Assembly: GCF_056746865.1 (NCBI RefSeq)
Contig: NZ_CM163382.1
Strand: one strand, 5' to 3'
DNA length: 64,000 nt
The position numbers were made by a program, and so were the translations under genes. The notes under the pieces are model-generated. The model saw only the letters and a list, made by a program, of their open reading frames with translations. It ran no database searches and had not been told where the DNA came from. Position 1 is the stretch's first letter. Each line of letters begins with the position of its first letter. Below, one piece after another: positions 1-23,905 of the stretch.

Positions 1-295
1 TACCCCGCCGTTAAATCATCCACCAAGCGCGAGTCGGATGCGCCGTACAACTCACCATCCGACCCAACCATAATGCTTTGCGTGCTGCCCATCGCCTCAT
101 TCAGCGCCACTTTCTGACCTTTTGCTTCCAGCAGCTTGAGCGTATCCGGACTAAACCCTTTTCAACACGCAGCTCGTCCGGCAACCACTGATGGTGGAAA
201 CGAGGCGCATTGGTCGCTTCGGCAACATTCATTCCACAATTGATGCTGTTCACCACCATTTGCGGCACGGTAGTGATGATCCAGCTACCGGTAAC
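1..295 (-). pseudogene. gamma-glutamyltranspeptidase-like gene remnant (3' portion only, runs off window start)
   Basis: Minus-strand translation gives GGT small-subunit motifs (VTGS..IITTV, NAPRFHHQWLPDELRVEKG). The remaining GGT-like C-terminus (FSPDTLKLLEAKGQKV...TAGY) is in another frame, switching at an A-run near 165. Similarity stops at the IS repeat near 300-330. Confidence 0.5.
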
Positions 296-330
296 AAAGT
301 GAGTACATAAAGGCCATACTGTCACGAACA

Positions 331-2072
331 GTGCAAAAGTGGCTCTTCCTCAACCTAGGTGAAGATTTTCATGCCAGTGGACTCATTACCCTCCGCCTAA
401 GTAGTTCAAGTCCGGCTCGACCATACATCTGGCGTATCAGCACCTTCAGGCGATTTACATGACCTTCGACAACACCAGTACTCCAGCGACTGCTGATTGC
501 CTCACATATAGCCGCAGCATCAGCTTCCATCCCCGCAGCTACGCACCGAAGTTCTGCTGAGCCGCTTTCGTGGACCCGAGTGAACCAGCTGCTTAGCTGT
601 GATTTATTTTAGGTTTTCAGAATACGGTAGAACTCGAGTACCAGTTGCTGCGCTATTTTCAACTCCGGTTCTTTTTCACACATCAGACTAATAAATCGGA
701 AAGCATAATTTTCTTCACCCCTGATTATTCTCCAGGGCATCAACCAGCGGCTTACCCGTGACACTGAAGGAAGTCTTGCGGCAGTAGTAACCGGTGGGAT
801 CCAGCCTTTATGCCATTTGGCAACAGCATCCCTGACGATGGTTTCACTGCCTGTAACCCCCCTGGCCACCATTTCCCGCCATATCCGGCCGGAGTTATAA
901 TTACCACATTCTCGTTGCTCTTTTAACCACTCCCTCCATGGGTCCAGAAGCCCTCGCTTTGGAGGCCTGGTTGACATTTCAGGGAATGTTCCTGAACCCA
1001 CCCAGCGACTGACTGTCACTCGCGACAGGCCTGTAATACGGGATATTTCCCTGAAACTACATCCCTTGTTATGCAGGGCCATAACCTCTGTCCAACGCTG
1101 ATGCCGTTTTTTGCGGATGTGCTGTTTAAGGCGTTCCAGACGACGGAGCGATGCTACAGGCACAGATATTTCTGGCTCAGGTGATTTCTTCAGTGATAAC
1201 TCTCTGACAACAAGACGTATCAGAGGCATATGTCTGTACATCATTCGTTCAGGCTCATCACCAATATTTTTTAGCAGGTGCCATCGATCGGCCACCTGTC
1301 TGGCCTGAGGTGCACCTTCACGTGCTGCTGTCGCATAGACTCCACTGCGATCACGCGAGACAACCTGTATTTCCGGATATTTTCTGAACCAGGTCGCCAG
1401 CGTACGCTGATCACGGCCGGGAAGCAGGACGAGGGGACGGTGAGTATCAGGATTGACTATTAACATACCGCAGCAGTGGCCCCGATGCCACGCCCACTCA
1501 TCAATACCGACATGAGGCGCGCCTGACTGTTTCGTCTCCGGGGTATTGATAAGCCTGCGAAGAAGAGTATCAGCACTGCAACGGAGACCCACTGCCGTTG
1601 CAGCCCGTTTTCCAGCCTCACCTCCAGCTATTAATCCCAGTTGACGTTGTTAATTTTGTAACGCCTGTGAAGACTGCTGGTGTGAACTGGCGAAGGGAGC
1701 AAGCGACTCGGCAAAAATTTTACGTGAACAAGCCGGGTTACGGCAGTACCAGTGGCGGACGGAAAATACAAGCCATAGCGTCTGCCCTGAGCAGGGTAGA
1801 TGCTGTATCCGGCGCCGACGACAACTATGAACAGAGTCGCTACGCTTAAAGCATTCAGGACATTGTGCTGTTTTGCGTTTTCCGTGGAGATGGAGGGTTA
1901 TACCGTCAGAGCTAATAATTTGTCGACTGCATCGCCATCCGCAAGGTAACTGTAGAAGTGTCTTAAGAGAGTGCATTGCGTTGCCCATAACTTAAAACAG
2001 CTTAGATCCTTGTTCGCCAGAAAGTTTCATCCATTTTCTTCCACCCAGGTTGCGGAAGAACCACTTTTCATC
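331..2072 (-). mobile_element. ISL3-family-like insertion sequence
   Basis: Imperfect ~31 bp terminal inverted repeats at 331-361 (gtgcaaaagtggctcttcctcaacctaggtg) and 2042-2072 (reverse complement, ~26/31 identical, core GGCTCTTCC) enclose a zf-ISL3/HTH/DDE transposase reading frame. Exact ends uncertain by a few bp. Confidence 0.6.
609..1988 (-). pseudogene. ISL3-family transposase interrupted by a single in-frame TAA stop
   Basis: ORFs 1650..1988 (CxxC zinc-finger N-terminus) and 609..1592 (HTH then DEWAWHRGH...VVSRDRSGVYA...DRWHLLKN DDE region) are in the same frame, separated only by the stop at 1650-1652. Confidence 0.6.
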
Positions 2073-2271
2073 CGTCGTTGACAGATGTGAAGTATGCGGG
2101 AGAAAAAGTGAATATCTAACTGTAATAACTCAGACCGGTACGAGTACTCGGGACGTCTACAATCATTCAGGGCAAAGTGCTAAAATTTCTCTATCCCGGG
2201 ATGCCCCTACCAACGCAGCACTCCCGGAGATATCATTACAGCTCTGCAACTGATTTCCGCGACTGAACCGC

Positions 2272-2679
2272 TCAGTTCCTATCCTTCCAGTTGCCCTCCT
2301 GCCCCCCCTCCCTGCTGTATACCCCGGTACCACAACTCGGGCAGCACTTTTCCCCCTCATAATTTTCGTCACACATCACACAAAACCACTTTCTCACCTT
2401 CACCGTATAATCCGGAACCGTCATACCCTGCAGATGCAAACGACGGGCCTCTTTCTCTGCCGGGTCAAGCCAGGTGCATCGCAGCAGGATTTTCTCAGCG
2501 ACAGTCATCTGGTCATGTTCAAACCACGGTGGTTGTCCGTCATTGCCCCGCTGAAGTGTTAACGGGCATCCACAGGACACACAGCACAAAACGTCCTGGC
2601 GGTTGTGCTTCGCTGCTTCTTTCGCCGTAACAAAATGGCCTTTGCTGTCATTCGCCATATAACAGTTCAGAATTCGCAT
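2272..2679 (-). CDS. hypothetical zinc-ribbon protein (CxxC...PWFEH...CxxC), paralog of upstream gene
   Basis: ORF 2272..2766, likely start at internal Met (MRILNCY...). Shares the Cys-pair/PWFEH pattern with ORF 2667..3074. Confidence 0.4.
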   Translation of the reverse strand: MRILNCYMANDSKGHFVTAKEAAKHNRQDVLCCVSCGCPLTLQRGNDGQPPWFEHDQMTVAEKILLRCTWLDPAEKEARRLHLQGMTVPDYTVKVRKWFCVMCDENYEGEKCCPSCGTGVYSREGGQEGNWKDRN

Positions 2680-3074
2680 ATTTCCTCCTGAGTTGTCCGG
2701 GGAATACTGAATCCTCCGGTCTGGCAGTGTGTGCAGTACCGCTCCCCATAATAATCGTGGTGACATTGTCTGCAGTGCCAGCTGGCTTTACGCACCACGG
2801 GTAAGGCATCCGGTACGAATTGCTGCAGACGTTTAATCAACTGTATTTCTCTGCGCTCCGGCCTGACATAAGGGCACTGTTGACCGTGCTCTGTCAGCCT
2901 GTCGTCAGTGTGTTCAAACCAGGGAAGTTCAGTGTCGTATTGCGGATGGTATCTGAGTGCACTGCCACACAAGTGGCAGGTGTAGTTAGCATAAGGTGCG
3001 GCCTGTGCAGTACGGGCGCCCGTCAGACGTCCGTTGCCATCAAGAGCGATAAAGGATTTTGCGTACATAGTCAT
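2667..3074 (-). CDS. hypothetical zinc-ribbon protein (CxxC...PWFEH...CxxC)
   Basis: 135-aa ORF with GAGGA ribosome-binding site upstream of the ATG. Motifs YTCHLCGS, LPWFEH, CRQCHH, CTHC. Confidence 0.45.
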   Translation of the reverse strand: MTMYAKSFIALDGNGRLTGARTAQAAPYANYTCHLCGSALRYHPQYDTELPWFEHTDDRLTEHGQQCPYVRPERREIQLIKRLQQFVPDALPVVRKASWHCRQCHHDYYGERYCTHCQTGGFSIPRTTQEEICEF

Positions 3075-3327
3075 ATTCCTCAGCCGCCAGACGACACGCA
3101 GGCAACAGCCGTCCCGGTACGGGCAGCGTGGTCAGGGTGTGAATGGCGGTTCAGTTAAAATCTGGACTGGAGTTTGGGTAAAGCAGGCTGGTTGCTGTTA
3201 CAGCACTGTGGTTGTCACACAATGGAACACTGACGTAAAAAACAGTCAGTGGGCGAGTGGATACATCGTTGCCGCCAGACAACAACCCATACTTTTGGTT
3301 TGCCGGGTATTGGCGCGCCAGTCGTGC

Positions 3328-3933
3328 TCAACTCCGGCTACAGCCAAAATTGCGCTCACCGGTGCAGTGAGCTTTGGTATGTTCCTTCGCCAGATAGTCA
3401 GCACGTTCCAGCACCTGCTGAAAGCCAGTGTCATCATCGCGTTCCAGCCACACCGCCGGCCAGGCCGGGAAATGCACCAGCGTGGCATGGCACCCGACAT
3501 CCACTCCCAGGGCACTGCACCACGCCTGTTTAATCATCCCGGCCAGTGATCCCGGAGCACGGTAATCACCGGCACGACACCAGGTATCCCGGTTAACCAG
3601 CAGCATCAGGTGATAGTGTTTTTTACCTTTGCACTCCCCAAACTCCCGGGCCCAGACGTAATGCAGGGTTGTGGGATGCACGCGTTTACCTTCCCGATGC
3701 TTACGTTTCTGGTAAGCGTCGATTCGGGCTTTCAGGGCATTGATGAAGCGGGATATCACAGCTGCGTCCGTTGCTGCCGGTACATCCGGGAAACGCAGGT
3801 CAACCCGCAATGCCGTCAGGCGGGGATGAACATTCAGTGCGTGCCGCACCGTCTCACGAATACGTTGCTGCCAGAAGGGGTTGTATTTGTAGGTCATGGT
3901 TAAATCTCCGTATGGTTCATACGGAATAGCCAC
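3328..3933 (-). CDS. YagK/YfjJ-family protein (inovirus Gp2-like, typical of CP4-6/CP4-57-type islands)
   Basis: 201-aa ORF; recalled family resemblance (KYNPFWQQRIRETV..., HYHLMLLVNRD). Start may be the internal Met at 3897. Confidence 0.55.
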   Translation of the reverse strand: MAIPYEPYGDLTMTYKYNPFWQQRIRETVRHALNVHPRLTALRVDLRFPDVPAATDAAVISRFINALKARIDAYQKRKHREGKRVHPTTLHYVWAREFGECKGKKHYHLMLLVNRDTWCRAGDYRAPGSLAGMIKQAWCSALGVDVGCHATLVHFPAWPAVWLERDDDTGFQQVLERADYLAKEHTKAHCTGERNFGCSRS

Positions 3934-4093
3934 GTCGTAAAAAATGCGCAGAGTCCCTGAAGTGACCTCCGGCAGGACACTGTCTCAGGCACTCTGTGAT
4001 AACCCGAACGGTCGTCTCCGGACTGACGGTTGAATTTTCAGCGTTGTTTTTTTAATGTAAAAAACCGGTTACGGGTAAGGCTGTGAGGAGGGA

Positions 4094-5423: not shown

Positions 5424-5630
5424 ATGGCTACCCCAGTTTCGCTGATGGATGACCAGATGGTCGACATGGCGTTTATCACTCAACTGACCGGCCTTACCGA
5501 TAAGTGGTTTGACAAACTCATCAAAGATGGGGGCTTTCCTGCGCCCATCAAAATGGGGCGCAGCTCCCGCTGGCTGAAAAGTGAAGTGGAAGCCTGGCTG
5601 CAGGCGCGTATTGCACAGTCCCGTCTGTAA
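5424..5630 (+). CDS. alpA: AlpA-family phage/island transcriptional regulator (excisionase-like)
   Basis: MATPVSLMDDQMVDMAFITQLTGLTDKWFDKLIKDGGFPAPIKMGRSSRWLKSEVEAWL matches the AlpA/MerR-like HTH family. ATG at 5424 preceded by GGAGGAA. Confidence 0.7.
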   Translation: MATPVSLMDDQMVDMAFITQLTGLTDKWFDKLIKDGGFPAPIKMGRSSRWLKSEVEAWLQARIAQSRL

Positions 5631-5717
5631 TTTTTAACCACTAACCCTTCGCCCACAGCAGACGCAATCTCCGGCCTGCCGGCGGCGCTCTGCTGCCTGT
5701 TATCCCCCGTGAGGAAT

Positions 5718-6326
5718 ATGAAAATGAAACAACAGTATCAGACCCGTTACGAGCTGCTCCATGAAAACTACCAGAAATGGCTGACCGGCTTCACCCGGCA
5801 CGCCGTATCATGGGGCGTGTGTCATCCGAATATCTACTATTTCCATAATCTGACGCCCGGGTGGGTGTCATTCAATGGCGAAAAACCGGAGATTGCCATC
5901 GTTCCCCAGAGTCTGCACCGGCTGATTTATGGTCCGGACAAACGGAGCTCCCCGTCCCTGGATGATGATCTGGTGGTGAATTTATGCACCAGCGAACACC
6001 TGCTGGTTCATCATCCGATGCTGGAAGGGATCCTGCTGTCTGAATGTGAGCGCCTGAAGCAACATTCTCTGGCAAACAAACTGATCAGCCTCTTCCGTCA
6101 GTTTGGCGGCACGGAGTTACGTCTCAAACTGGTCTGGCTCTGCTGGCTTGACTTAATGACCGGAAACAGCCTTGACGACTGGACGAAAAACCTGAAACAC
6201 AAATCAGAAAAAGATCTGGAGCAATGGATCATTGCACGTCAGGGTCAGAGTGAACCACTGACAAATCTGATGGATCAGTACGTGCTTATGGCATACCGTA
6301 CATCGGTTGATGCCGCTCACAGTTGA
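5718..6326 (+). CDS. hypothetical protein
   Basis: ORF 5709..6326; ATG at 5718 with GAGGA upstream; followed by a perfect 12-bp stem hairpin. Confidence 0.4.
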   Translation: MKMKQQYQTRYELLHENYQKWLTGFTRHAVSWGVCHPNIYYFHNLTPGWVSFNGEKPEIAIVPQSLHRLIYGPDKRSSPSLDDDLVVNLCTSEHLLVHHPMLEGILLSECERLKQHSLANKLISLFRQFGGTELRLKLVWLCWLDLMTGNSLDDWTKNLKHKSEKDLEQWIIARQGQSEPLTNLMDQYVLMAYRTSVDAAHS

Positions 6327-6336
6327 TGTCTGAGAA

Positions 6337-6370
6337 CCACAGGGCTGGCAGCAGAAAACCAGCCCTGTGG
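6337..6370 (+). terminator. stem-loop (ccacagggctgg / ccagccctgtgg) downstream of the 5718..6326 ORF
   Basis: Perfect 12-bp inverted repeat with 10-nt loop; weak U tract, so intrinsic-terminator function is uncertain. Confidence 0.4.
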
Positions 6371-7149
6371 TAAAATACAGTAATAGCGGCGTACATCAGG
6401 CACGCCGCTCACTCGTCCACAGATCATATACGTCATTATACTGCGCGATAACGGAGGGCTTCAGCACCCGGTCATTTCTGAGCGGGTATGAATACCATTG
6501 ATGATGCGAAGCAGCCACGGGCAGAAACGTTCTTCACAACCAGGTGCCTCCATCTTCACTGCAGTCTGAATGTGCCGGCTTGTTATCCACCAGAAATGGT
6601 ATGCTCCGGTACATGCATACCCCGGAGACTATAAACGCACTGAATCATAGCCTCCCACCTCAGCAGGAGGCAGTCAGCTTTCAGGCGGAAAAACGTTGCA
6701 GTTAAAGATCGTGAGAATCGCTGTTTCGTTGCATAGCAACCCGAACAGTTGTAGTGAAACATTTTACCTGCATCAGCACATGGTCAGGCGCCGTCTGTAT
6801 GGCGTGGAATACTGATGTTTCGGCTGATGGCAAGCCTCATTCTCTGTGGAAACAGGGGCGCGCATTAGCTTCTCAACCAAGAGAGTGTCACAAAGACAAA
6901 TATTGCTGAAAATCGCATTCATCGTTCAGGCGTGAATGCCCGGAGACAAAAGCCGCTGTCCACACAGTCCCCCTCTGACCTGAACAAAAAGCATACACAC
7001 AACAGGCTCACCTGACCCCGAAAAACCATAACTTCAGCAATACCAGTGACACCAGCACGTTACCTCAGTGCCACATCTTCAGACCGCGATCAATCTGAAA
7101 TGTGACTATCGGGGCAATATCCCTGCTTTGTGGTACACGATAACCAGAA

Positions 7150-7244
7150 AACATCCCCTGAACCGCCAGCCAGAAAGACTGGCCACAAAAGGGGTAAGCT
7201 GAAATCGTTTATGGATTACATCGACATATGCCTGGCAGAGAATG
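7150..7244 (+). pseudogene. IS21 istA remnant, 5' piece (split by the IS66 insertion)
   Basis: Translates PEPPARKTGHKRGKLKSFMDYIDICLAEN, matching the IS21 IstA N-terminal region; continues in frame at 9683 once the IS66 element is removed. Confidence 0.55.
7237..7244. repeat. 8-bp target-site duplication AGAGAATG (left copy) of IS66-family element
   Basis: Identical 8-mer immediately flanks both GTAAGCG termini (7237-7244 and 9683-9690). Confidence 0.8.
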
Positions 7245-7285
7245 GTAAGCGTGCAGTGAGAACCGTATTGACGAAGTGAAGCTGG

Positions 7286-8822
7286 TCAGGCGGGCAGAGT
7301 AACCCGCCACGGGAGCAGAGCACCCACCCGGTTCACAGGCCAGTCGGCGATGACATCAAGTACATGATGCAGATAGCGTTCCGGATCCACGCCGTTTAAT
7401 TTGCACGTCCCGATAAGACTGTACAGTGACGCACCGCGCTCACCACCATGATCCGAGCCGAAGAACAGCCAGTTTTTTCTCCCCAGACTGACCAGTCGTA
7501 GGGCGTTTTCGGCAATGTTATTATCCACCTCCACCCAGCCATCTTCTGCATAGCGGGTCAGCGCCGGCCACTGGTTCAGCGCATACCCGAACGCCTTCGC
7601 CAGTTCTGAGTGCCTTGAGAGGGTTTTCTGTTTCTCCCGCAGCCACCCCTCCAGTGACGCCAGCAGCGGCAGCACTTTTTGGTGCCGGACTGCCTGCCGT
7701 TCCTCTGCTCTTTTACCTCTGAGCTCCGACTCGATGGCATACAGCTCGCCGATCCGTTTCAGCGCCTCCTCCGTCAGGGCTGACGGGGTACGGACGTGAA
7801 CATCGTGGATTTTTCGGCGGGCATGGGCCCAGCACGCGGCTTCCTTTATATGGCCGTCGCGGTAGAGCTCGTTGAACCCGGCGTAGGCATCAGCCTGCAG
7901 TACGCCACTGAAGCCTGCAAGATGGGTCTGAGGGTGGATACCTTTTCTGTCCGGGCTGTAAGCGAACCACACTGCGGGGGCCAGCGCTGATCCGGCGTTG
8001 CGGTCGTCTCGAACGTACGTCCATAAGCGCCCGGTCTTCGTCTTCTTATTGCCCGGCAACAGCACCGGGACAGGCATATCGTCAGCATGGAGTTTGCCGT
8101 CGGTCAGGACATAGTGCTGAAGGGCTTCATCCAGCGGTGCCAGCAGACGACAACACGCATCCACCCAGCCCGACAGTACAGAACGACTCAACACTACACC
8201 CTGGCGGGCATAGATCTCCGACTGGCGATACAGCGGTATGTGCTCTGCATACTTTGAGGTCAGCACTCGGGCCAGCAGCCCCGGTCCGGCGATCCCCCGT
8301 TCGATGGGGCGCGAAGGAGCCGGGGCCTGAACGATGCGATCGCACCGACGGCAGGCATGCTTTTCACGGACTGTCCGGATAACCCGGAAGGCGCTGCGCA
8401 TCAGCTCCAGCTGTTCGGCGGCATCCTCACCCAGGTAACTCAGCGAACCACCGCACTCCGGGCAACACGGCTCAGTCGGCAGCAGCCGCTTCTCATCCCG
8501 TGGGAGTGACTCAGGGAACGGTTTGCGGGTGCGGGTCTGACGCAGCGGGCGCTGCACTGCCGGGTCATCCACCCGGCCGGTCAGCGTATCGCTTTCCTGC
8601 TGCAGCAGGTTCAGGTCAGCTTCCATTTGCGCGATACGGCGGGATACCTTTTCGGAACGACTGCCGAAGTTCATCCGGCGCAGCTTATCCAGTTGCGCCT
8701 GCAGATGGTCTATTTCGCGTTCCCGGTTGCTCAGCTTTTCCTGCAGGGCGTGGATCAACGCTTCCTGGTTCGGCCAGGCGCTGTTTCAGCAGAAGGATGT
8801 CGTCAGAAGAGGTGTCGTTCAT
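7286..8822 (-). pseudogene. tnpC: IS66 transposase TnpC with a frameshift about 17 codons from the start
   Basis: ORF 7286..8758 is the IS66 TnpC body. The N-terminus MNDTSSDDILLLKQRLAE is encoded from 8822 in another frame, with one extra C near 8770 (gaaccaggaagcg). Confidence 0.65.
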
Positions 8823-8871
8823 AAGCCTGTATTTTACCAGGCTTATTCTGCGACAACCAGGATAAAGAGCG

Positions 8872-9219
8872 CTACAACATGGTCAGGGATGTCAGTAACC
8901 GCTTTGGCTGTCGCCAGTCGATACCTTCCATCAGCATCGCCAGTTGCGCCGGCGTCAGGAACACTTTGCCATCGCGGGCTGAGGGCCAGGCGAAGCGACC
9001 ACGTTCTAGTCGCTTTGTCAGCAGGCACAGACCATCGCCGGTGGACCAGAGCAGTTTTACCTGACTGCCGCTGCGTCCCCGGAAGATGAAGACGTGGCCG
9101 GACATCGGGTCATCTTTCAGCGCGGTCTGCACCTTTGCGGCGAGGCCATTGAAGCCGTTGCGCATATCGGTGATACCGGCAACCAGCCAGATTTTTGTGC
9201 CTGCGGGAAGATTTATCAT
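8872..9219 (-). CDS. tnpB: IS66 family accessory protein TnpB
   Basis: 115-aa ORF MINLPAGTKIWLVAGITDMRNGFNGLAAKVQ..., typical IS66 Orf2. Confidence 0.85.
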   Translation of the reverse strand: MINLPAGTKIWLVAGITDMRNGFNGLAAKVQTALKDDPMSGHVFIFRGRSGSQVKLLWSTGDGLCLLTKRLERGRFAWPSARDGKVFLTPAQLAMLMEGIDWRQPKRLLTSLTML

Positions 9220-9599
9220 ACAGGCCCCCGCATCAGTTCGCGCAGGACAGTGCTCATGAGTTCAGCAGAGGGATGAGTCAGTGTTATTTCTCCTCCCCGA
9301 CATTTTATGTGGCAGGTAGCGGGAGGAGAGCAGGATGGTAGTTCGAAGGTTGGGAGAGAAGAGCCCGCCTGAAGCTGCACGGGTATCAGGGCAGGAAGCG
9401 ACGATGAGTTTTTTCGGGGCCGACAGACCCGCCCTTCACGCTGCCAGAGCCTTATCCATTTAAAGAGCAGGTTATCATTGACGTCATGTTTCCGGGCCAG
9501 TGCGGCAATACTGCCTTCTTCTTCAAGAGCCAGCCTGACCAGTTCCATTTTGAATTCAGGGGAATAGTGTTTCCGGGGAAGTCTTTCTTTAGCGCGCAT
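9216..9599 (-). CDS. tnpA: IS66 family accessory protein TnpA
   Basis: 127-aa ORF with HTH-like N-terminus, overlapping the tnpB start by 4 nt. Confidence 0.75.
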   Translation of the reverse strand: MRAKERLPRKHYSPEFKMELVRLALEEEGSIAALARKHDVNDNLLFKWIRLWQREGRVCRPRKNSSSLPALIPVQLQAGSSLPTFELPSCSPPATCHIKCRGGEITLTHPSAELMSTVLRELMRGPV

Positions 9600-9682
9600 G
9601 AGGTGTCCACCTGCAAAATAAGTGGGTGCTTAAGTTACAGGATCCTGGATTCGGGACCAGACGGTACTCAGACGACGCTTAC

Positions 9683-9690
9683 AGAGAATG
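9683..9690. repeat. 8-bp target-site duplication AGAGAATG (right copy) of IS66-family element
   Basis: See left copy at 7237-7244. Confidence 0.8.
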
Positions 9691-9960
9691 TCCGGAATGA
9701 CGAGGTTATCTTTGCGGAGATTAAGGCAATGGTATACGGGCCGACGTTCCATGCCGCGTTACTACATTCAGCCCGGACGTAAAATGCGCCCGTCAAAAAG
9801 AACGGTTCGCTTCGAAACTCAGCCAGGATACCACCTCTCCGCCACACCCGGGAAGAAGTTGATATGGTGGTTGCCGGACAACAGCGCTCCTGGATTGACT
9901 GCTGCATCACTCAACCACGCTGAATATCAAAGGAGAGCGTTACCGGTTAAAAGAGAAACG
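9683..9960 (+). pseudogene. IS21 istA remnant, 3' piece (frameshifted, truncated)
   Basis: Encodes NVRNDEVIFAEIKAM and, in a second frame, RYYIQPGRKMRPSKRTVRFETQPGY, matching IS21 IstA residues ~85-150. No intact ORF. Confidence 0.6.
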
Positions 9961-11466
9961 TAAAGCTGTGGTGATGACCCAAAACGCAACGCCTGTCAGT
10001 GAGGATGAAATGGTGAAAAGCGGACAGCATCAGTAACGGAAGTATCTTAGCGGGTACGAAAATGGCAGGATCGTGACATTGACAGAATATCTCCTGATCA
10101 TCCTGAATGACTGCAGTTGCTGTAGAAAAGTAAGCTGTCTCCACCCACGGCACCACTTAACAGGCATTCCGTAACTTCCCCCAGACTTACTATGACGCAT
10201 TATCGGTGCACTGAAAACGGGAGAGTGCGCTTAAAACCGCAGACCGCATGCGGGTGTTACTGCATGACAGTCTGGCCGTATTGTGAGATGTCGGCAGGAA
10301 CCGATGTCCGCGCAGGGGGGAACTTCCTGCAGTACCTGACGCTTCAAATGGTATTAACCGTAGGGTGTTGTTGGTTCCGGATCGCGGAAATGGGAGCACA
10401 GGTCTGCTACGGGGTGTACCTCTGACAGTATATCCGGCTCGCTCATCTGACAGCCTCTCTCCCGGAAAAGACCAAAAATGAGATCGTCTCCTCAACAGCA
10501 GAGAAGAGGTCTTGACAGACAGGCTATATTGCATACGATTTATGAAGAAAAAGACAGCAAATATGGAGGTTATAGCGGAGAATACCCTACGAAATTCCTA
10601 TGAAAAACGATTGAAAAAAATATCAAATTCGATTCGTTTTTATATGCTTTTTGGGAGCGTGGCGATGACGAACTGTTGCATGTGCAGAGGAGAATGCACC
10701 CGGAAGCACCAGAATCATCCAGAAAGGCAGAACGATTACGCATCAAACCAGGAGACAGCAATATCAAGGTAATATACTGATTTAAAATGAATTTACAGCA
10801 ATACGTGAAAACATTTTTTACTTAAAGGAGACAGATGCGCTGAAGAGAGTGCAAGTATTTTTATATAAAAATGAGAAGTTTACGGGATGTATATCCGGCA
10901 CACTATGACCGGAGAATATCAGTCAAGCTTAAAAAGACAATAAATACAGTGAGTTAAATACACAGAGAAAACGTAGTATCAGAGGGTACATCTTACAACA
11001 GAGACTGAATTTCCGGTTTTTCATAACCGGCGCATTCCGGAAAGTGCAGGCGGCCCGGAGGTTTTCTGACGCCACTACCTGGTAGATTGTTCTGTACATC
11101 ATGTACGGAGGTTTTTGTTTGCTTTTTTAAAATCTGCAAATGTGAGAAAAGCAGGTGAGGTGTATTGTGGGAAAGGAACTGGATGATATCTGCACCAGCT
11201 GTCCGTATATCGATGCTGTAAAACGGCACAAACAACAGCTCGGTGCCATAGAGGAATATACACAGTGGTTAAAAAAAGAACCACGGGCATCTTATTTTTT
11301 TCTGTTCCAGCTGTATACCCGCATTCACAATACATTTTTCTCCCAAAAGCAACAACTCCCGTTCACTCCCGGTGGCACTCACTGCCCGGAACCTGATGTC
11401 ACCCTTCGGGACTTAACGCTTTCCCCTGGCTACCACAGTGATTATGCCCCTCAACCCATTCCGGAG

Positions 11467-12318
11467 ATGGACAGTTCTGCTGTTGTTCCCCCAACTAATG
11501 AAAACACCTCGCCTCCGGAAGATACTCCCGACAACACTCCGGCCGGAGGCAATACCGGACAAGCGGAAAAGACCAGAAACGCAGGACTCACACCCATTCC
11601 TGAAAAACGTTCAGGAATGCCCCCGGAACATCTGCGGTTTGCCACGGGGTTTCCATCGCAACCGAAGATTGCCGGTCCCAGAGAAAAGCCGATGCGCACC
11701 GTGCATCCGGATAAAATCTACCGTGAAATTATATGGTTCTGCTCCAGTTACCTGCTGAAATCCGGACCAGAGGCTACGAGGACGATTATCAACTCAGTAT
11801 TCTCTGAATGGGCCAGCATAAACAATGATTACCCCTCCCCCTTTTCGTGGGTGGACAGCAGGGACAGTGAACAGTGTGACTGGTTATGGAACGCCATGCA
11901 GGTCCGGTGTGTGGGAACCCCGCTGAATCCCCTTACCCCGGAGCAGAAATACTGGTTTGCCTGCGCCACGTTTGATAACTGGGAGGGCTGGAATGAGCAA
12001 CAGGTACAGTTTTTACTGGAAAGTAATCCCAGACGGAACAGAGCGAAGTTTACGCAGGTCTCCTTCCAGGCCCCCAGGATTCAGCATAAAGCGATTCTTC
12101 TTGATGAGCTGAAAAGTGCCCGGGAGCAACAAAAAAGGCGTGATGAACGTGCTGATGGTTCCGTCCCTCTGAAACTGTCCGGAAAAATCCACAAACAGCT
12201 TGAAAGTATTGCCCGAAGTCGTGGTGTCCTCCCAAAAAAACTGCTGAATGAAATGATTGAGCAGGCGTACCATGATTTGGTGGCAACCAGGCAGAACAGC
12301 CAAATCGATTCCAGATAA
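11467..12318 (+). CDS. hypothetical protein (Pro/Thr-rich N-terminal region; C-terminal region with ribbon-helix-helix-like segment)
   Basis: ORF 11155..12318 with no ATG before 11467. GGAG precedes ATG 11467. No family recognised. Confidence 0.3.
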   Translation: MDSSAVVPPTNENTSPPEDTPDNTPAGGNTGQAEKTRNAGLTPIPEKRSGMPPEHLRFATGFPSQPKIAGPREKPMRTVHPDKIYREIIWFCSSYLLKSGPEATRTIINSVFSEWASINNDYPSPFSWVDSRDSEQCDWLWNAMQVRCVGTPLNPLTPEQKYWFACATFDNWEGWNEQQVQFLLESNPRRNRAKFTQVSFQAPRIQHKAILLDELKSAREQQKRRDERADGSVPLKLSGKIHKQLESIARSRGVLPKKLLNEMIEQAYHDLVATRQNSQIDSR

Positions 12319-12401
12319 TTTCAGACAGATATTATTTCCGTGAATCCCCCGCCACCTTTCCGGTGCGCGGGGTTTTGTCTTTTTTCACCGGGAATACATG
12401 T

Positions 12402-12637
12402 ATGAATCCGTCTGATGCCATTGAGGCAATTGAAAAACCGCTCTCCTCCCTGCCTTACTCACTTTCCCGTCACATCCTGGAACATCTGCGCAAACTCACC
12501 AGTCACGAACCCGTGCCTGGCATTATGGGTAAAAGCGGGGCCGGTAAATCCTCACTCTGTAATGCGCTGTTTCAGGGGGAGGTCACCCCGGTCAGTGATG
12601 TTCACGCCGGCCCCCGGGAAGTGCAGCGCTTCCGTCT
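12402..12637 (+). pseudogene. YeeP/YfjP-like small GTPase gene, N-terminal part (interrupted by IS21-family element)
   Basis: P-loop GKSGAGKSS, then ...REVQRFRL at the insertion junction. Confidence 0.7.
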
Positions 12638-12839
12638 TGCAAAATGGCATCTGAATCGATCGCAGTTTGGCATTCGAATCGATCATGATTTGGCATCCAT
12701 CTCCGATCACAGTTTGGCATCACAATCGATCACGATTTGGCATGCTTCCGATCATTGATTGGCATCCTGCCAGTCACTCCGGGAATTAACTCTTTTCACC
12801 ACAGTCTCCATTGCCGTGTTTAAACCAGTGGAGACGTCA

Positions 12840-14405
12840 ATGTCCAGAAAGAGAAAATCCAGGAGCACTATGGAAACCTGTTTTAAGATTCTTCAGCTCA
12901 AGTTCGACAAGAAGCTGACTAACCGTTGTATCGGACTGACGTTACACATCAGCGCCTCAACCGTTTTTGAGGTTCTTGCCCGCTTCAAAGCCTCTTCTCT
13001 GTCATGGCCATTACCTGCTGATATATCCCATGACACGCTGGAGAAACTCATTTTTCCGCCCAAAGACACCTTTGCATCAGAGCTTGTAATGCCTGACATG
13101 TTGTACCTCGATACGGAAATGAGAAAACCAGGTGTGACGCGGCAACTGTTGTGGATGGAATACAAGGCACAGGCGGGTAACAAAGCGATGGGATACTCGC
13201 ACTTCTGCCGTTGCTACCGGGAGTGGAAAAAAACGCGACGTCTCTCCATGCGCCAGGAGCATCGTGCCGGCGAAAAGCTTTTTATCGACTTCTGTGGTCC
13301 TACGGTTCCTGTTATTAATCCGGACACCGGTGAGATACGCCGCGTGGCAATCTTCGTGGCCGTAATGGGGGCGTCCAACTATACCTACGTTGAAGCGTGC
13401 GAAGGTCAGGACATGATGTCATGGTTAAATGCCCACAGCCGTTGCCTGACCTTCCTGGGCGGCGTACCGAAGCTGCTCATCCCCGATAACCTCAGAAGCG
13501 CAGTGAAAAAGGCCGATCGATATGAGCCTGTCATCAACGACAGTTATCAGGCACTGGCTGAGCACTATGGCACGGTTATCATCCCGGCCCGACCACGCAA
13601 ACCTAAAGATAAACCAAAAGCAGAAAACGGCGTCCTCATCGTCGAACGATGGCTTCTTGCCCGCATCCGTAATGAAACCTTCCACACGCTCAGGGCGCTG
13701 AATGCGCGCCTTAGGGAGTTACTGACAGACATGAATAACCGGCCAATGAAGGGGTACGGCAATCAAACCCGTGCAGAACGCTTCCGCATACTGGATGCGC
13801 CAGCACTCTCTCCGCTGCCTCTGGCACCTTATGAATACACGGAATACAAAGCTGTGAAGGTTGGCCCTGACTACCACGTTGAATATGCCCGTCACTGGTA
13901 CTCCGTTCCACACGAACTGGTCGGTCAGCGTCTGTCACTGAAGGCGGGGCAGTCGGTGGTACAGCTCTGGCACAAGGGGCAGTGTGTGGCGCAACATCCG
14001 CGCAGCACACATGAATATAAACACACAACCAATCCGCTTCACATGCCAGAGCGCCACCGGCAGCACGGGACATGGACACCGGAACGCCTGATCGAGCAGG
14101 GAAAACGTACGGGCCCGTCCACAGGCCGGGTGGTTGAATCCATGCTGAAGGCAAAACCCCATCCGGAACTGGCTTATCGTGCAGTTCTGGGGCTGCTGGC
14201 ACTTCAGAAAAAATACGGCCCGGAACGGCTGGAAAAGGCCTGTTACGTTGCCCTGCACTATAACGCCCCTGACAGACGCTTTATCGACAATCTGCTGCGT
14301 CACCATCGGGAGAACCTGGAGCTTCCATTATCCCGCCAGGGCGAACAACATCCGGCATATGCTTCAGAGCATGAAAACCTGCGTGGTCCGGGCTACTACC
14401 ACTGA
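12840..14405 (+). CDS. istA: IS21-family transposase IstA
   Basis: Long ORF with GGAG ribosome-binding site before ATG 12840; lies between IS21-type ends, directly upstream of an IstB-like gene. Confidence 0.7.
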   Translation: MSRKRKSRSTMETCFKILQLKFDKKLTNRCIGLTLHISASTVFEVLARFKASSLSWPLPADISHDTLEKLIFPPKDTFASELVMPDMLYLDTEMRKPGVTRQLLWMEYKAQAGNKAMGYSHFCRCYREWKKTRRLSMRQEHRAGEKLFIDFCGPTVPVINPDTGEIRRVAIFVAVMGASNYTYVEACEGQDMMSWLNAHSRCLTFLGGVPKLLIPDNLRSAVKKADRYEPVINDSYQALAEHYGTVIIPARPRKPKDKPKAENGVLIVERWLLARIRNETFHTLRALNARLRELLTDMNNRPMKGYGNQTRAERFRILDAPALSPLPLAPYEYTEYKAVKVGPDYHVEYARHWYSVPHELVGQRLSLKAGQSVVQLWHKGQCVAQHPRSTHEYKHTTNPLHMPERHRQHGTWTPERLIEQGKRTGPSTGRVVESMLKAKPHPELAYRAVLGLLALQKKYGPERLEKACYVALHYNAPDRRFIDNLLRHHRENLELPLSRQGEQHPAYASEHENLRGPGYYH

Positions 14406-14421
14406 CAGAAGGAACAACAGT

Positions 14422-15177
14422 ATGAGTGATAACCTGTTAAACAAACTGACCCAACTGAAACTCCCGGCGATGGCCGGGAGCCTGATACGGCAGCGGGAAA
14501 CGCCTCAGACCTACGACGAACTGTCGTTCGAGGAAAGGCTGACGCTGCTGGTTGATGACGAGCTTCTGAGCAGGGAAAACAGCCGTGTGGCACGGTTGAG
14601 AAAAAATGCCGGCCTGAAATACCAGGCAACACCGGAAGGGCTGCGCTATCCGGCCTCAAGAGGTCTGCGGGCTGAACAGATGAGAGAACTGCTGAACGGC
14701 CACTACATAACCCACAGGAAAAACCTGCTGATAACCGGTCCGACAGGATGTGGCAAGAGCTGGATAGCCAATGCGCTGGGCGAACAGGCATGTCGACAGA
14801 AACACAGCGTCCGGTACTGTAGAACCGGGCGATTACTGGAACAACTGGCTCAGGGACGTGTTGATGGCAGCTGGCTGAAATATCTGAAACAGTTGCAAAA
14901 AATACAGGTTCTAATCCTGGACGATCTGGGGCTGGAACAGTTAAGTAACGCCCAGTGTAATGACCTTCTGGAGCTCATAGAGGATCGTTACGGACAAAGC
15001 AGCACGATAGTGGTAAGCCAGTTCCCGGTAGATAAATGGCATGGTCTGATGGAGAACCCAACAACAGCAGATGCCATCCTGGACAGACTGGTACATAACT
15101 CACACCGGGTGGTCCTTCAGGGAGAGTCACTGAGGAAAAATCCCCCGGTAGTGGAAAGCAGCGAAAAAACGCGTTAA
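14422..15177 (+). CDS. istB: IS21-family helper ATPase IstB
   Basis: Walker A LITGPTGCGKS and Walker B VLILDDLG motifs; ATG 14422 with AGGAA upstream. Confidence 0.85.
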   Translation: MSDNLLNKLTQLKLPAMAGSLIRQRETPQTYDELSFEERLTLLVDDELLSRENSRVARLRKNAGLKYQATPEGLRYPASRGLRAEQMRELLNGHYITHRKNLLITGPTGCGKSWIANALGEQACRQKHSVRYCRTGRLLEQLAQGRVDGSWLKYLKQLQKIQVLILDDLGLEQLSNAQCNDLLELIEDRYGQSSTIVVSQFPVDKWHGLMENPTTADAILDRLVHNSHRVVLQGESLRKNPPVVESSEKTR

Positions 15178-15276
15178 AAAGCGGTAGAAAAAGTTAAGTT
15201 CCCGGTTGATCGAATGGATGCGAATCGCTGATCGGACTTCGATGCCAATCCGTGATCGAATAGAGCGGAATACGCA

Positions 15277-15920
15277 TCCGTCTGAATGGCCATGGTCACA
15301 GCATGGTTATCACTGACCTGCCCGGGGTGGGCGAGAGCCGGGACAGGGATGCAGAGTATGAAGCCCTGTACCGTGACATTCTGCTCGAACTGGACCTGGT
15401 ACTGTGGCTGATTAAAGCCGATGACCGTGCCCTGTCTGTGGATGAGTATTTCTGGCGACACATCCTGCACCGGGGACATCAGCGGGTACTGTTTGTGGTG
15501 ATGCAGGCCGATAAAACGGAGCCCTGCCATGAATGGGATATGGCCGGTATTCAGCCTTCTCCCGCACAGGCACAGAACATTCGCGAAAAAACGGAGGCGG
15601 TATTCCGTCTGTTCCGGCCCGTACATCGGGTTGTTGCCGTATCGGCCCGCACCGGCTGGGAACTGGATACGCTGGTCAGTGCGCTCATGACAGCACTTCC
15701 CGACCATGCCGCCAGTCCCCTGATGACCCGCCTGCAGGACGAGCTGCGCACGGAGTCTGTCCGGTCTCAGGCCCGTGAACAGTTTACCGGTGCGGTGGAC
15801 CGGATATTTGACACGGCGGAGAGCGTCTGCATTGCCTCTGTTGCACGCACGGTTCTGCGCGCCGTCCGTGACTCGGTGGTCTCTGTTGCCCGCGCGGTAT
15901 GGAACTGGATTTTCTTCTGA
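15277..15920 (+). pseudogene. YeeP/YfjP-like small GTPase gene, C-terminal part
   Basis: Continues the split GTPase: G3 motif DLPGVGES, then LVLWLIKADDR and VLFVVMQADK. Confidence 0.7.
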
Positions 15921-16040
15921 ACCCGGTGGTGATGTACCAGGCTGTTGTTACAGATTTTTAACTCCATGAAAACACTATGCAAACGCAGCCATACCCGGGT
16001 TGTCCCCTTGCGTTGTGTTTCTCAAGTTAATAGAATACAT

Positions 16041-16077
16041 CGATCGTTACTATCATATCGATCGTTATAAACGATCG
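16041..16077 (+). promoter_or_regulatory. cluster of three GATC (Dam) sites embedded in repeated CGATCGTT motifs, 60 bp upstream of the dynamin-like gene
   Basis: GATC at 16060-16063 and 16073-16076, with a third at about 16042; each inside a cgatcg palindrome (catcgatcgttact...atcgatcgttataaacgatcgttt). Confidence 0.5.
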
Positions 16078-16137
16078 TTTGTAGTAAATGACCTCCTCCG
16101 TGGTTGTCATGAAAATGCGTCTTAGGAAGGTTAAATA

Positions 16138-18534
16138 ATGCACGAAAAGAACATCGCCCTGCTTTGTGATGAAGCCGACCGACTTTTGCAACTGAACATT
16201 AATCTGCTCCGGCAAATGGTTGAGGAGCCAGATGTGTTATCTGACAGTAAGAACGAAAACAGACTGCTTTTTGATAAACAGAAAGCACTGAAAAGAATTG
16301 AGGAGCTGGAGGGCGAACAAATCAAAACCGCCCGCAGGGAGATGGTGCTGGCTGTTGTCGGCACGATGAAAGCAGGCAAATCAACCACCATCAACGCCAT
16401 TGTGGGGCAGGAAATTCTGCCTAACCGTAACCGCCCCATGACCTCTGTACCGACGCTCATCCGCCACGTTCCCGGAAAAACTGAGCCGGTTCTCCATCTG
16501 GAACATATTCAGCCTGTCCGCAATTTATTAATCACACTGCAGGAAAAACTCGCCACCCCGGCAGGACAGCAGGTCGCACAGACCCTGCAGCAAACCGGGG
16601 ATACCCGCGAACTGCTGGATATTCTGACGGATGATGGCTGGCTCAAAAATGAATACCACGGGGAGGAGGAAATCTTTACCGGACTGGCATCGTTAAACGA
16701 TCTGGTTCGTCTTGCTGCGGCAATGGGGACTGAATTTCCTTTTGATGAATACGCAGAAGTGCAGAAACTGCCGGTGATCGACGTGGAATTCAGCCATCTG
16801 GTGGGGATGGATGCATGCCAGGGAACACTCACACTGCTGGATACCCCCGGCCCTAATGAGGCCGGACAACCGCAGATGGAAGTGATGATGCGGGATCAAC
16901 TGCAGAAAGCCTCTGCGGTTCTGGCTGTGATGGATTACACCCAGATGAACTCAAAAGCGGATGAAGACGTCCGTAAAGAGCTTAATGCCATTGCTGACGT
17001 ATCAGCCGGCCGCCTGTTTGTACTGGTCAATAAATTTGATGAGAAAGACCGCAATGGCGATGGGGCAGATGCCGTACGCCAGAAAGTTCCGGCAATGCTG
17101 AACAGCGATGTGCTGCCCGCCTCCCGCGTTTATCCCGGATCCTCACGCCAGGCATACCTGGCTAACCGTGCGCTTCATGAGTTACGGAAAAACGGAACCC
17201 TTCCTGTTGATGAAGCCTGGGTCGATGATTTTATCAGAGGTGCCTTCGGTTGCATGAAAAAAGAATACGTCTGTAAAGACAGTGAACTGGCAACTGAAGG
17301 GGCGACAGACCTGTGGGAAGGCTCACTTATCGATCAACTGATAACGGAAGTCATACAGAGCTCACATTCCAGAGCTGCGGCACTGGCGGTTGACTCTGCC
17401 GCCGCAAAACTGATGCAGAATGCAGAAAATATCAGTGAATACCTGTTGTTACGCCATCAGGGGCTACAGCAAAGCATTCAGTCACTGCAGTCGCATATCA
17501 CCAGCCTGCTTGCGGATATCCGGGAAATCGCGGACTGTCAGGAGCAGATGACCACTGATGTCAGAATGGCCATGGAGGAGATCGATACTAAAACCCGGGA
17601 ATTACTGACGGGGGTCTGCACCTCACTGGAAGAGGAGCTGAATGACTATTTCAGAAGCGGTAAACGCAAAGAACAGCAAATGCTGGAGGAAGAAGACGCA
17701 GAACAACGAAGGTCTCAGTCCGGATTATGGGGGAAAATTTCTCAATGGTCCGGTATCAACAACCAGGGCCGGGAGGATTACAGGAAACGAGATTTTGCCC
17801 CGGACAGCCCCGAAATAAAATTCAGTGATCGCAGGGAAGCCCTTGAACTGATGACGCAAATCGAATCGACCGTGACCAGCCTGCACCGTGAGGCTGAAGC
17901 ACAGTTCCGGCCTGAGCTGGAGAAAATCGTCAGCGGGATTGAAACAGGTTTTCGTGGCACGGCCCTGTACGCCACAGAAAACATTGCCGGTCGCATCAAT
18001 GCCCGCCTGGAGGATGAGGGCTTTACCGTAAAAATCAGTTTTCCGGCAGTCAGCCAGTTACAGACCCGGCTCGCGGTAAAAATAAATCTGAGTGCGCTTA
18101 TGGAGGAAAGAACGGAGACCGTCACCCGTCGCCGTCGGCAGAGTGGCGTATGGGGAACCGTTTGTCGATGGTTTGGCACCAGTGACCTGGGCTGGGAAAA
18201 CTATGACGAGGATGTGAGTCGCAGCGTGATCAATATCAACAAGGTCAGAGAGGAAGTTATGTCACTGACCCGGGCATATTTCGGGGAGCTGCAGGCATCC
18301 ATTGAGCAGGATATTAACCAGCCCGTCCGCCAGGAAATCGATGCCTTTTTCTGCGCATTCAGGGAGAAAGTTGAACAACTGCGTAACACGCTGATTCAGA
18401 GCTCTGAAGATCATAAACGCGATCAGCAGGCGCAGGAACGGCTTACCGGGCGACTTCAGGCATTAAATGAAAGGGTTCCTGAGCTCATTACTGACAGTAA
18501 GGCGCTGAGGGAAGAGCTGGAGACAATGCTGTGA
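16138..18534 (+). CDS. dynamin-like GTPase, CrfC/YjdA-like (798 aa)
   Basis: G1 P-loop GTMKAGKST, G2 Thr in MTSVPT, G3 DTPG, G4 NKFD, in dynamin order, followed by a long helical region. N-terminal block MVLAVVGTMKAGKSTTINAIVGQEILPNRNRPMT closely matches recalled E. coli CrfC. AGGAAGG ribosome-binding site. Confidence 0.85.
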   Translation: MHEKNIALLCDEADRLLQLNINLLRQMVEEPDVLSDSKNENRLLFDKQKALKRIEELEGEQIKTARREMVLAVVGTMKAGKSTTINAIVGQEILPNRNRPMTSVPTLIRHVPGKTEPVLHLEHIQPVRNLLITLQEKLATPAGQQVAQTLQQTGDTRELLDILTDDGWLKNEYHGEEEIFTGLASLNDLVRLAAAMGTEFPFDEYAEVQKLPVIDVEFSHLVGMDACQGTLTLLDTPGPNEAGQPQMEVMMRDQLQKASAVLAVMDYTQMNSKADEDVRKELNAIADVSAGRLFVLVNKFDEKDRNGDGADAVRQKVPAMLNSDVLPASRVYPGSSRQAYLANRALHELRKNGTLPVDEAWVDDFIRGAFGCMKKEYVCKDSELATEGATDLWEGSLIDQLITEVIQSSHSRAAALAVDSAAAKLMQNAENISEYLLLRHQGLQQSIQSLQSHITSLLADIREIADCQEQMTTDVRMAMEEIDTKTRELLTGVCTSLEEELNDYFRSGKRKEQQMLEEEDAEQRRSQSGLWGKISQWSGINNQGREDYRKRDFAPDSPEIKFSDRREALELMTQIESTVTSLHREAEAQFRPELEKIVSGIETGFRGTALYATENIAGRINARLEDEGFTVKISFPAVSQLQTRLAVKINLSALMEERTETVTRRRRQSGVWGTVCRWFGTSDLGWENYDEDVSRSVININKVREEVMSLTRAYFGELQASIEQDINQPVRQEIDAFFCAFREKVEQLRNTLIQSSEDHKRDQQAQERLTGRLQALNERVPELITDSKALREELETML

Positions 18535-19436
18535 CTTCACCATTTATTCAACAAATTGCTGATAACCGGGTATGTCAGGTACTCACCTGTCTTCCTGAAA
18601 AATTTGTGGTTGATTTCGCAAACGGAATCGATGTTGCACAGGAGCATATCCGCACGGCCGGAGAGCGCACGTTCTTCCGGCGTTTAAAAGAGGGGCTGAC
18701 CGGCGAAGGCGCTGCACGGCAGAATGCCATCAATGCGTCGCTTGCACAGGGCGTTGAGGCGTCCCTGCGCTGGCTGACGGAGATGACAACGTCACTTGCC
18801 ACCACAAACTACGCGATTACCCGGGTAAACGACAGGGTCAGTTCACTGGTCAGTGATACAGCCAGGCTGGCGCATTATTCCGCAGATACGCGGGAGCAGT
18901 TACTCACCCTGGCCGATCAGGTTCACCATAAACTGAATCATCTTGAAGAAAAACTCCACCGTGTTGACCAGGTTCAGCGGGCGCAGTTACATCTTGAGCA
19001 GATATTCTCATGGTGGAGCGCCGGGCGATATGCGTCATTTTCCCCTGCCGGACGTTGTTATGTGGCACTTGAAGAGCTTCGCTGGGGCGCGTTTGGTGAT
19101 GTGATACGTCAGAGCGAAACAGGCCAGGTTAACCAGCTACTGGATATTCTCAGACATAAAGCATTAACGCAGATGGCACAGGAGAGTGGCGGTAGTGCAA
19201 CCGTGCGTCTGAACACTCTGGACTGGCTTGGTGGTCAGGGCCGGGAGCAGGCAGATAACGAGTGGCATGACGCGATTAACTGGCTGGGAGACTGGTGCAG
19301 TGAAGAGCAGCATCCGGTGATCTGGTCAACCACGCAGGCTGCAGAACACTTACCGGTTCGCATGCCTCGCCTCTGCTCTGCAGAACGCCTCTCTGAAAGT
19401 ATGGTCGATGAAATATTTCAGAAGGGGGCTGCATGA
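18531..19436 (+). CDS. YjcZ-like partner protein of the dynamin-like GTPase (301 aa)
   Basis: GTG start overlaps the upstream stop (ctGTGA); GGAG 10 bp upstream. Size and position mirror the crfC-yjcZ pair; family assignment not verified. Confidence 0.55.
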   Translation: MTSPFIQQIADNRVCQVLTCLPEKFVVDFANGIDVAQEHIRTAGERTFFRRLKEGLTGEGAARQNAINASLAQGVEASLRWLTEMTTSLATTNYAITRVNDRVSSLVSDTARLAHYSADTREQLLTLADQVHHKLNHLEEKLHRVDQVQRAQLHLEQIFSWWSAGRYASFSPAGRCYVALEELRWGAFGDVIRQSETGQVNQLLDILRHKALTQMAQESGGSATVRLNTLDWLGGQGREQADNEWHDAINWLGDWCSEEQHPVIWSTTQAAEHLPVRMPRLCSAERLSESMVDEIFQKGAA

Positions 19437-22790: not shown

Positions 22791-22871
22791 TGCCGTTTCC
22801 CTGAGTGAGGGAATCATTCAGCTTTCGTTCCTGAAAAACACACATTTATTTGTTATTTAAGGAGTTATCTC

Positions 22872-23843: not shown

Positions 23844-23905
23844 CCCGTCACAACCACATCACACCTGTTTTCACTTTTATCTTCTGTCTTCAGAGGTATC
23901 CCACT

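Follow-up and report, generated by a model that had tools for sequence, protein, structure and literature searches.

A probable fossil junction of a ggt remnant and an ISEc38-like relic in the cobU–yeeX island of Escherichia coli

Positions 1–2083 of the window, i.e., the analyzed stretch of 64,000 nt from contig NZ_CM163382.1, very probably represent a non-functional fossil junction within the cobU–yeeX genomic island of E. coli, built by relocation of a chromosomal segment, arrival of an insertion sequence, and inactivation. The junction comprises the 3' end of a gamma-glutamyltransferase gene (ggt), a short spacer, and an ISL3-family insertion sequence with two nonsense codons in its transposase frame (Table 1). 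By prediction, no part of the junction is expressed or able to move. We found no promoter-like site in positions 1–2400, no Rfam family or tRNA in positions 1–4000, and no other copy or fragment of the ISL3 element in the window. By itself, the relic is of little weight; the relocated segment and the ends of the insertion sequence are considered below.

Table 1. Features of the junction (window coordinates).
Feature	Position	Strand	Evidence
3'-terminal gamma-glutamyltransferase remnant, last 97 codons	1–290	-	ggt alignments, PF01019, NF007187, PGAP
1-nt deletion frameshifting the ggt remnant (CCC/TTTT run)	156–162	-	alignment with K-12 and Salmonella ggt
Spacer between ggt breakpoint and insertion-sequence tip	291–319	.	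no ggt homology; locus-specific
21-nt IS100-type (IS21 family) left-end tip, TGTCACGAACAGTGCAAAAGT	320–340	+	19/21 vs. IS100 first 21 nt
ISEc38-like ISL3-family insertion sequence proper, dead copy, 1722 bp, GGCTCTTCC...GGAAGAACC	341–2062	-	identity, collinearity, end alignments
Transposase pseudogene, 539 codon positions, two nonsense codons	369–1988	-	frame, domains, PGAP
Older in-frame stop TAA, Q460* (CAA in intact ISEc38)	609–611	-	window, IHE3034, 12690, O104:H4
Younger in-frame stop TAA, L113*	1650–1652	-	window's lineage only
21-nt IS100-type right-end tip, ACTTTTCATCCGTCGTTGACA	2063–2083	+	21/21 vs. IS100 last 21 nt

Many complete E. coli chromosomes match positions 1–2400 with 100% identity, and of 5426 complete E. 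coli genomes, 2582 contain the 2.4-kb arrangement with at least 80% of the query covered. The left end of the window belongs to the E. coli cobU–yeeX (CP4-44-type) genomic island. In strain BE2-5 (locus L001, where window position p corresponds to p + 12000), the stretch is located between cobU and tmaR/yeeX, which is the site of the CP4-44 island in K-12. Its left neighbors encode a PfkB-family kinase, a glutamine-amidotransferase-like protein, a DMT transporter, and a phosphotriesterase-related protein, and its right neighbors encode two zinc-ribbon proteins and an inovirus-Gp2-family protein. The island is rich in insertion-sequence debris, including an IS66 fragment to the left of the putatively transplanted segment and the ISEc38/IS100 relic to its right. 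Both parts of the junction are labeled as pseudogenes by PGAP in every genome opened, the ggt piece as "gamma-glutamyltransferase, frameshifted, missing N-terminus" and the transposase as "ISL3 family transposase, internal stop". The initial annotation, made from the sequence alone, had correctly recognized a pseudogenized element of the ISL3 family and, also within an island, a ggt-like gene that is truncated and frameshifted. It had also considered the arrangement unusual, which does not hold in view of its frequency and the PGAP calls; the ggt remnant and the ISL3 relic are an ordinary, already known, RefSeq-annotated pseudogene pair in about half of the complete E. coli genomes. The closest known counterpart of the island is CP4-44 of E. 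coli K-12, which occupies the same chromosomal site between cobU and yeeX/tmaR and shares common cargo, e.g., a TonB-receptor pseudogene, yeeS, yeeT, and cbeA. In contrast to the window, however, K-12-type strains (hits H44–H47) matched the ggt part of the query alone, so that the K-12 island appears to be without the four-gene module to the left of the junction, the ggt remnant, and the ISL3 relic.

The ggt remnant retains 97 of 580 codons, i.e., about 17% or a sixth of the gene, where the 3' third had been assumed initially. Its stop codon is located immediately to the left of window position 1. Positions 1–290 share 91–93% identity with the 3' end of the housekeeping ggt in essentially every E. 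coli (92.6% with K-12 ggt), and 82–86% with Salmonella ggt. The alignment with K-12 ggt reaches and includes the stop codon, beyond which the flanks are wholly divergent, the E. coli ggt locus continuing with another sequence. At the protein level, the remnant matched PF01019 with 74.5 bits (cut-off 27) and positions 485–581 of the 581 positions of NF007187 (E 3e-56), the score for the latter (190.8 bits) being below the cut-off of 990. A full-length, single-frame GGT precursor is thus not present, given the 97 of 580 codons and the 1-nt deletion. The latter is common to all four aligned island lineages. A frameshifted ggt fragment with the peptide VTGSWIITTV had been proposed before; it is on the minus strand, and we could trace the frameshift to this deletion at approximately 158–162. 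Compared to the housekeeping ggt of K-12, the remnant has lost some 83% of the gene, with it the large subunit and what is generally assigned in GGT as the catalytic residue, the N-terminal threonine of the small subunit, is frameshifted, and is sited in the cobU–yeeX island rather than at the ggt locus. A protein search with the fragment returned other fragments only and no closer full-length donor.

Homology to the ggt genes of E. coli and Salmonella ends at position 290. An alternative alignment, which assumes a 12-nt deletion between GGTAGC repeats, adds about 6 nt and extends homology to about position 297. The comparison of the peptide VTGSWIITTV with VTGSPGGSRIITTV fits this alternative, and the break may correspond to either alignment. 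The spacer therefore measures 29 nt, or 23 nt under the alternative alignment; it is homologous to ggt of neither E. coli nor Salmonella and occurs at one locus alone among the window and all fetched loci searched. Contrary to the earlier view that ggt lies directly outside the left repeat, 23–29 nt separate the end of ggt homology from the tip of the element at position 320.

To the left of the breakpoint, the homology continues far beyond ggt. A single blastn alignment of 4475 nt and about 76% identity joins L001 7817–12290 (window −4183 to 290) with a region of the Salmonella core chromosome in which gntR–yhhW–yhhX is followed by genes for PfkB, GATase1-like, DMT, and PTE proteins, and then by the convergent ggt–yhhA–ugpQ. 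This alignment spans intergenic space and stops exactly at the ggt break. The corresponding 4.47-kb segment of the island contains genes for the kinase (PfkB/DeoR), the amidotransferase-like protein, the transporter, and the phosphotriesterase, and the 3' end of ggt. For the phosphotriesterase-related gene, close homologues were found in Salmonella bongori (88%) and S. enterica (86%). Among the matches listed, the four-gene module occurs in E. coli in the island only and never beside the housekeeping ggt. A search with the 5' 1430 nt of ggt revealed no second copy in any of the 5426 E. coli genomes (5433 places in 5425 genomes), and the island copy thus appears as this stub alone. The initial annotation had interpreted the fragment as a second, island-borne ggt copy in decay. 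In the simplest reading of the sequence data, the "second ggt" would instead mark where a chromosomal segment of 4.47 kb was cut on its way into the island, by a putative mechanism and from a putative donor. A leftward extension of the window, which had been suggested in order to look for an intact gene, cannot apply as a test, since the stop codon is located just left of the window and the missing part is 5', on the side of the insertion sequence.

As this collinearity shows, the four genes were convergent with the housekeeping ggt on an ancestral Escherichia-type chromosome, as they are in present Salmonella. A 4.47-kb piece ending 290 bp inside ggt would then have been relocated to the island, bringing only the last 97 ggt codons along, and the remnant would have lost one base thereafter. 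Between the remnant and K-12 ggt, 13 synonymous and 9 non-synonymous codon differences were counted, which indicates that much of the divergence arose under selection, before truncation; the remnant, which is closest to E. coli ggt, thus accumulated most of its differences while still part of a functional gene in an Escherichia-type lineage. The four-gene module could also have been acquired horizontally with the island from a sister Escherichia species instead of having been moved within the E. coli lineage. A donor genome with more than 93% identity was not found. We also searched for an IS-free right flank and found no pre-insertion "empty" site; paralogous islands match from window position 2295 onward only, and the pre-insertion site is hence not recoverable. 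Salmonella keeps the module beside ggt, whereas the E. coli genomes searched have it in the island only, and the segment would neatly illustrate how a metabolic module can persist because it was relocated.

The right part of the junction is, by its sequence, an ISEc38-like ISL3 element between two IS100-type tips, from which the interior of IS100 is absent. A repeat finder revealed an inverted repeat of 43 nt with 77% complementarity (arms 319–361 and 2042–2084), and the true tips of the palindromic unit are located at positions 320 and 2083 (1764 bp), with TG at 320 and CA at 2083. The repeat consists of two layers, i.e., the 21-nt IS100-type tips outside and ISL3-type repeats inside (341 to about 364, and about 2039 to 2062). 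The inner repeats start with GGCTCTTCC, as is typical of ISL3 termini, and they are preserved among ISEc38 copies as well as in relatives that belong to more than 15 genera of Enterobacterales. The inverted repeats of 31 bp reported in the initial annotation do exist; their arms, however, are an inner subset of the 43 nt and mix IS100-type tips with the ISL3 repeat. As a reference for the tips we used a complete IS100 at L011:2527–4480, which comprises 1954 bp with annotated istA/istB, begins with TGTCACGAACGGTGCAATAGT followed by GATCCAC, ends with GTGGATC followed by ACTTTTCATCCGTCGTTGACA, and is flanked by the 5-bp duplication GCTGT. The tips in the window match the termini of this IS21-family element at 19 of 21 positions on the left and at all 21 on the right, so that IS100 terminal sequences are present at both ends, but neither istA and istB nor any other part of the IS100 interior is found between them. 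We had also considered that all 1764 bp might constitute one ISL3 element, its repeats measuring 43 bp and its target duplication 5 bp, an interpretation that was superseded by the nested reading with IS100-type tips.

In other copies of the composite, among them L002, L005, and L007, the tips are flanked by duplications of 5 bp; the sequences observed were GTACT, CATGG, and GGAGC, and GGTGC in a Serratia relative. The copy in the window differs from these ISEc38 copies and from IS100 in L011 by having no target duplication at 320/2083, where the pentamers are CATAC (315–319) and GATGT (2084–2088). There is also no direct repeat at 341/2062, the flanks there being the inverted IS100-type tips. 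The ISL3 family norm is a target-site duplication of 8 bp, and no such duplication accompanies the element in the window. The missing duplication suggests that at least one flank was changed by recombination or deletion. An ISEc38-type element between IS100-type tips lies 29 bp from the ggt breakpoint, and a recombination or deletion would have altered at least one side of it.

Compared to copies labeled as ISEc38 family by PGAP, the element is 94.5–95.0% identical at the DNA level over its whole length and 91.3% at the amino-acid level; by ISfinder convention, isoforms share more than 90% DNA identity with the type sequence, and the element may be such an isoform of ISEc38. Its inner repeats and flanking 21-nt tips are the same as those of ISEc38. 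Unlike ISEc38, it is fixed at a single chromosomal locus. The transposase frame runs on the minus strand from 1988 to 369 over 540 codons without indels and is collinear with the intact 539-aa ISEc38 family transposase WP_001375513.1 (L003), from which it differs by 45 substitutions and the nonsense codons L113* and Q460*. With the stops masked and read as X, the frame matched NF033550 (NCBIfam "ISL3 family transposase") with 344.9 bits (cut-off 180), and the Pfam domains DDE_Tnp_ISL3 and Zn_ribbon_ISL3 were recovered (PF01610, 93.7 bits vs. 23; PF14690, 28.9 bits vs. 25.5). The initial annotation had placed zinc-finger, HTH, and DDE parts in one frame. Frame and domains were confirmed, but the HTH is not the usual N-terminal HTH of ISL3 transposases; it is formed by a domain that interrupts the DDE region and is similar to the N-terminal part of IS100 IstA. 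The frame was also said to be interrupted by a single stop. The TAA at 1650–1652 is indeed present, but a second and older TAA at 609–611 had been missed, and the uninterrupted transposase of an active ISL3 member is consequently lacking.

The two stops differ in age and thereby mark lineages of the island. The TAA at 609–611 is present in all four lineages, i.e., in the window, IHE3034 (phylogroup B2), strain 12690, and O104:H4. Codon 1650–1652 is TTA (Leu) in IHE3034, 12690, O104:H4, and intact ISEc38. Q460* hence inactivated the transposase before the carrier lineages split, and L113* was added later in the lineage of the window. Ratios of pN/pS were 0.6–0.94 among the relic lineages, compared to 0.3–0.4 against active ISEc38, which is consistent with a copy that drifts neutrally, as expected for a pseudogene.

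Three other explanations for the junction were weighed. An intact island-borne second ggt might have been destroyed by the insertion sequence itself, through insertion or an adjacent deletion. The break at 290 is close to the tip at 320, and the missing target duplication would be compatible with an IS-mediated rearrangement. A direct event, however, would let break and tip abut, whereas 29 nt of unrelated, locus-specific sequence lie between them; no E. coli genome retains more of a second ggt; and the ggt piece is collinear with the relocated core segment, the capture boundary of which needs no full island copy. We therefore consider a truncation by the insertion sequence unlikely, and favor the cut edge of a relocated segment.

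The remaining two explanations concern the insertion sequence and would grant it a function. If the TAA at 1650–1652 were a sequencing error, as the initial annotation had proposed to check, or were read through, the element might still be an active transposon, and its frame without indels and its recognizable domains would fit. However, at least 20 independent complete assemblies share this sequence with 100% identity, the second stop at 609–611 is found in every lineage checked, the copy evolves neutrally, and it occurs only once, at a fixed locus and without a target duplication, by which an active element is effectively refuted. It is also highly improbable that the relic was domesticated, i.e., that a 112-aa zinc-ribbon N-terminal peptide or the repeat DNA regulates neighboring island genes. 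The relic is kept at one locus in about half of the complete E. coli genomes, and the N-terminal ORF (1988–1650) is open in the lineage of the window; linkage within a vertically inherited island, though, explains this retention equally well, pN/pS is near 1, and no promoter-like site was found in positions 1–2400. Since L113* is lineage-specific, the short N-terminal peptide is not conserved either. A non-functional relic is thus the explanation that we retain for the insertion sequence.

Apart from the relic, the ends of ISEc38-group elements caught our attention. Most of the approximately 70 distinct ISEc38-group ends that we collected continue into a 21-nt tip of IS21-family type ending in ...ACA, and in E. 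coli all but a few ISEc38 ends are capped by such a tip. Tip-capped relatives with 72–87% protein identity were found in Serratia, Hafnia, Trabulsiella, Salmonella arizonae, Kosakonia, Rouxiella, and others; the relatives examined cover more than 15 Enterobacterales genera, and a few of them have no recognizable tips. In E. coli, the ISEc38 tips agree with the left and right ends of IS100 at 21 of 21 positions. Three junction types are located directly beside the GATCCA of the IS100 end, and in one case the junction is at a second GATCCA, 46 nt in.

Within the transposase, residues 301–389 are homologous to residues 9–101 of IS100 IstA (32% identity, E 2e-10), and the NCBIfam IS21 model matches over its positions 2–100 (E 8.6e-13). 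We tentatively propose, with somewhat less than even confidence, that the ISEc38 group may be an undescribed chimera of two IS families, which either targets IS100-type ends or hitch-hikes inside mini-IS100 shells. The elements could target IS100-type ends via the captured IstA-like DNA-binding domain, or they could ride in mini-IS100 shells that are moved by IS100. That IS100 is involved is favored by the duplications of 5 bp and by tips that match those of IS100 exactly. Regarding previous descriptions, ISEc38 appeared in the literature searched only in output lists of MobileElementFinder, and no paper was found on ISL3 elements at IS100 ends. If undescribed, the association with IS100 termini and the IstA-like domain would be a concrete instance in which an insertion sequence targets another one or hitch-hikes on it. 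Exact-pattern scans gave 0 matches, both with the initial pattern on genome contigs and on viral contigs, and a candidate circle-junction promoter across the abutted ends in L011 was rejected, as the scan found none.

The tips of ISEc38 occur in swapped arrangements. The IS100-left type is located at the stop-codon side in 47 genomes, and the IS100-right type is located there in 710. One plasmid carries both arrangements, with 1728-bp interiors that are 100% identical. An invertible interior was considered for ISEc38 and was dropped after a metagenome census revealed copies whose two ends are of one type and the end types turned out to be the left and right tips of IS100. Given these same-type ends and the identity to the IS100 tips, recombination between copies suffices to account for the end arrangements.

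Tips of 21 nt, identical to the left or right termini of IS100 (reference, the complete copy at L011:2527-4480), cap nearly all ends of ISEc38 elements in E. coli. Most ends of ISEc38 relatives in other genera likewise carry 21-nt tips; the comparison covered the window, L002, L003, L005, L007, L054, and L067-L096. In E. coli, we could identify left/right, right/left, and right/right arrangements; the left/left arrangement was found in the relatives only. Plasmid NZ_CP019954 harbors two ISEc38 copies with 100% identical interiors and swapped tips, and several copies are flanked by 5-bp duplications.

A further relation to IS100 concerns the ISL3 transposase of the ISEc38 type, whose residues 301-389 show homology to the HTH part at the N-terminus of IS100 IstA (32% identity, E 2e-10) and sit as an insert inside the DDE domain. 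A comparison of this region with ISSso4-type IstA revealed no similarity.

Features in and around the window
Feature	Location	Strand	Remark
Tips of the relic	320-340 and 2063-2083
IstA-like region	about 820-1090 (transposase residues 301-389)	minus	homology to IS100 IstA
ISEc38-type transposase with IstA-like region, second locus	L003:1537-3153
Two overlapping zinc-ribbon protein genes and an inovirus-Gp2-family gene	2272-3933		right side of relic
Four-gene module (DeoR-HTH/PfkB kinase, GATase1-like, DMT/YdcZ transporter, phosphotriesterase-related)	L001:7817-11957; L058, L060, L061		left of window (L001, strain BE2-5)

IS100 pieces were also observed elsewhere. A 47-nt mini-IS100 (L010:2503-2549), in which nt 1-22 of the left end are fused to the terminal 25 nt on the right, lies in an IS3-family orfA pseudogene and is flanked by the 5-bp duplication CTGTC. 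Its joined tips are matched over the full length in 521 complete E. coli genomes, and nearly all of the matches listed share the IS3-family orfA context. In strain L16-131 (L011:2490-4490), the ISEc38-like relic seen in the window has a complete IS100 inserted directly beside its right tip, with the duplication GCTGT, thereby creating a right-tip/5 nt/left-tip junction.

For the 2272-3933 region, on the right side of the relic, the match to paralogs from other E. coli islands begins only at position 2295; 2084-2294 is therefore specific to the relic's junction. Compared to strain BE2-5, the window's island carries ~16 kb of extra cargo (5434-18817 and 22458-25245), including IS66 genes, a GTPase, RdcB, a patatin-like phospholipase, and a dynamin-family gene that is broken by an IS21-family element. 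Comparison with L066 places yeeS, yeeT, and cbeA close to this cargo.

The four-gene module to the left of the window has an island location in E. coli, where the IHE3034 copy (phylogroup B2) contains a frameshifted kinase; in Salmonella, it belongs to the core chromosome, with yhhX and ggt on either side. Regarding the housekeeping ggt of E. coli, L004 and a genome survey revealed unusually high polymorphism: across the 5' 1430 nt, 1899 of 5425 records share just 90-95% identity with the K-12 allele.
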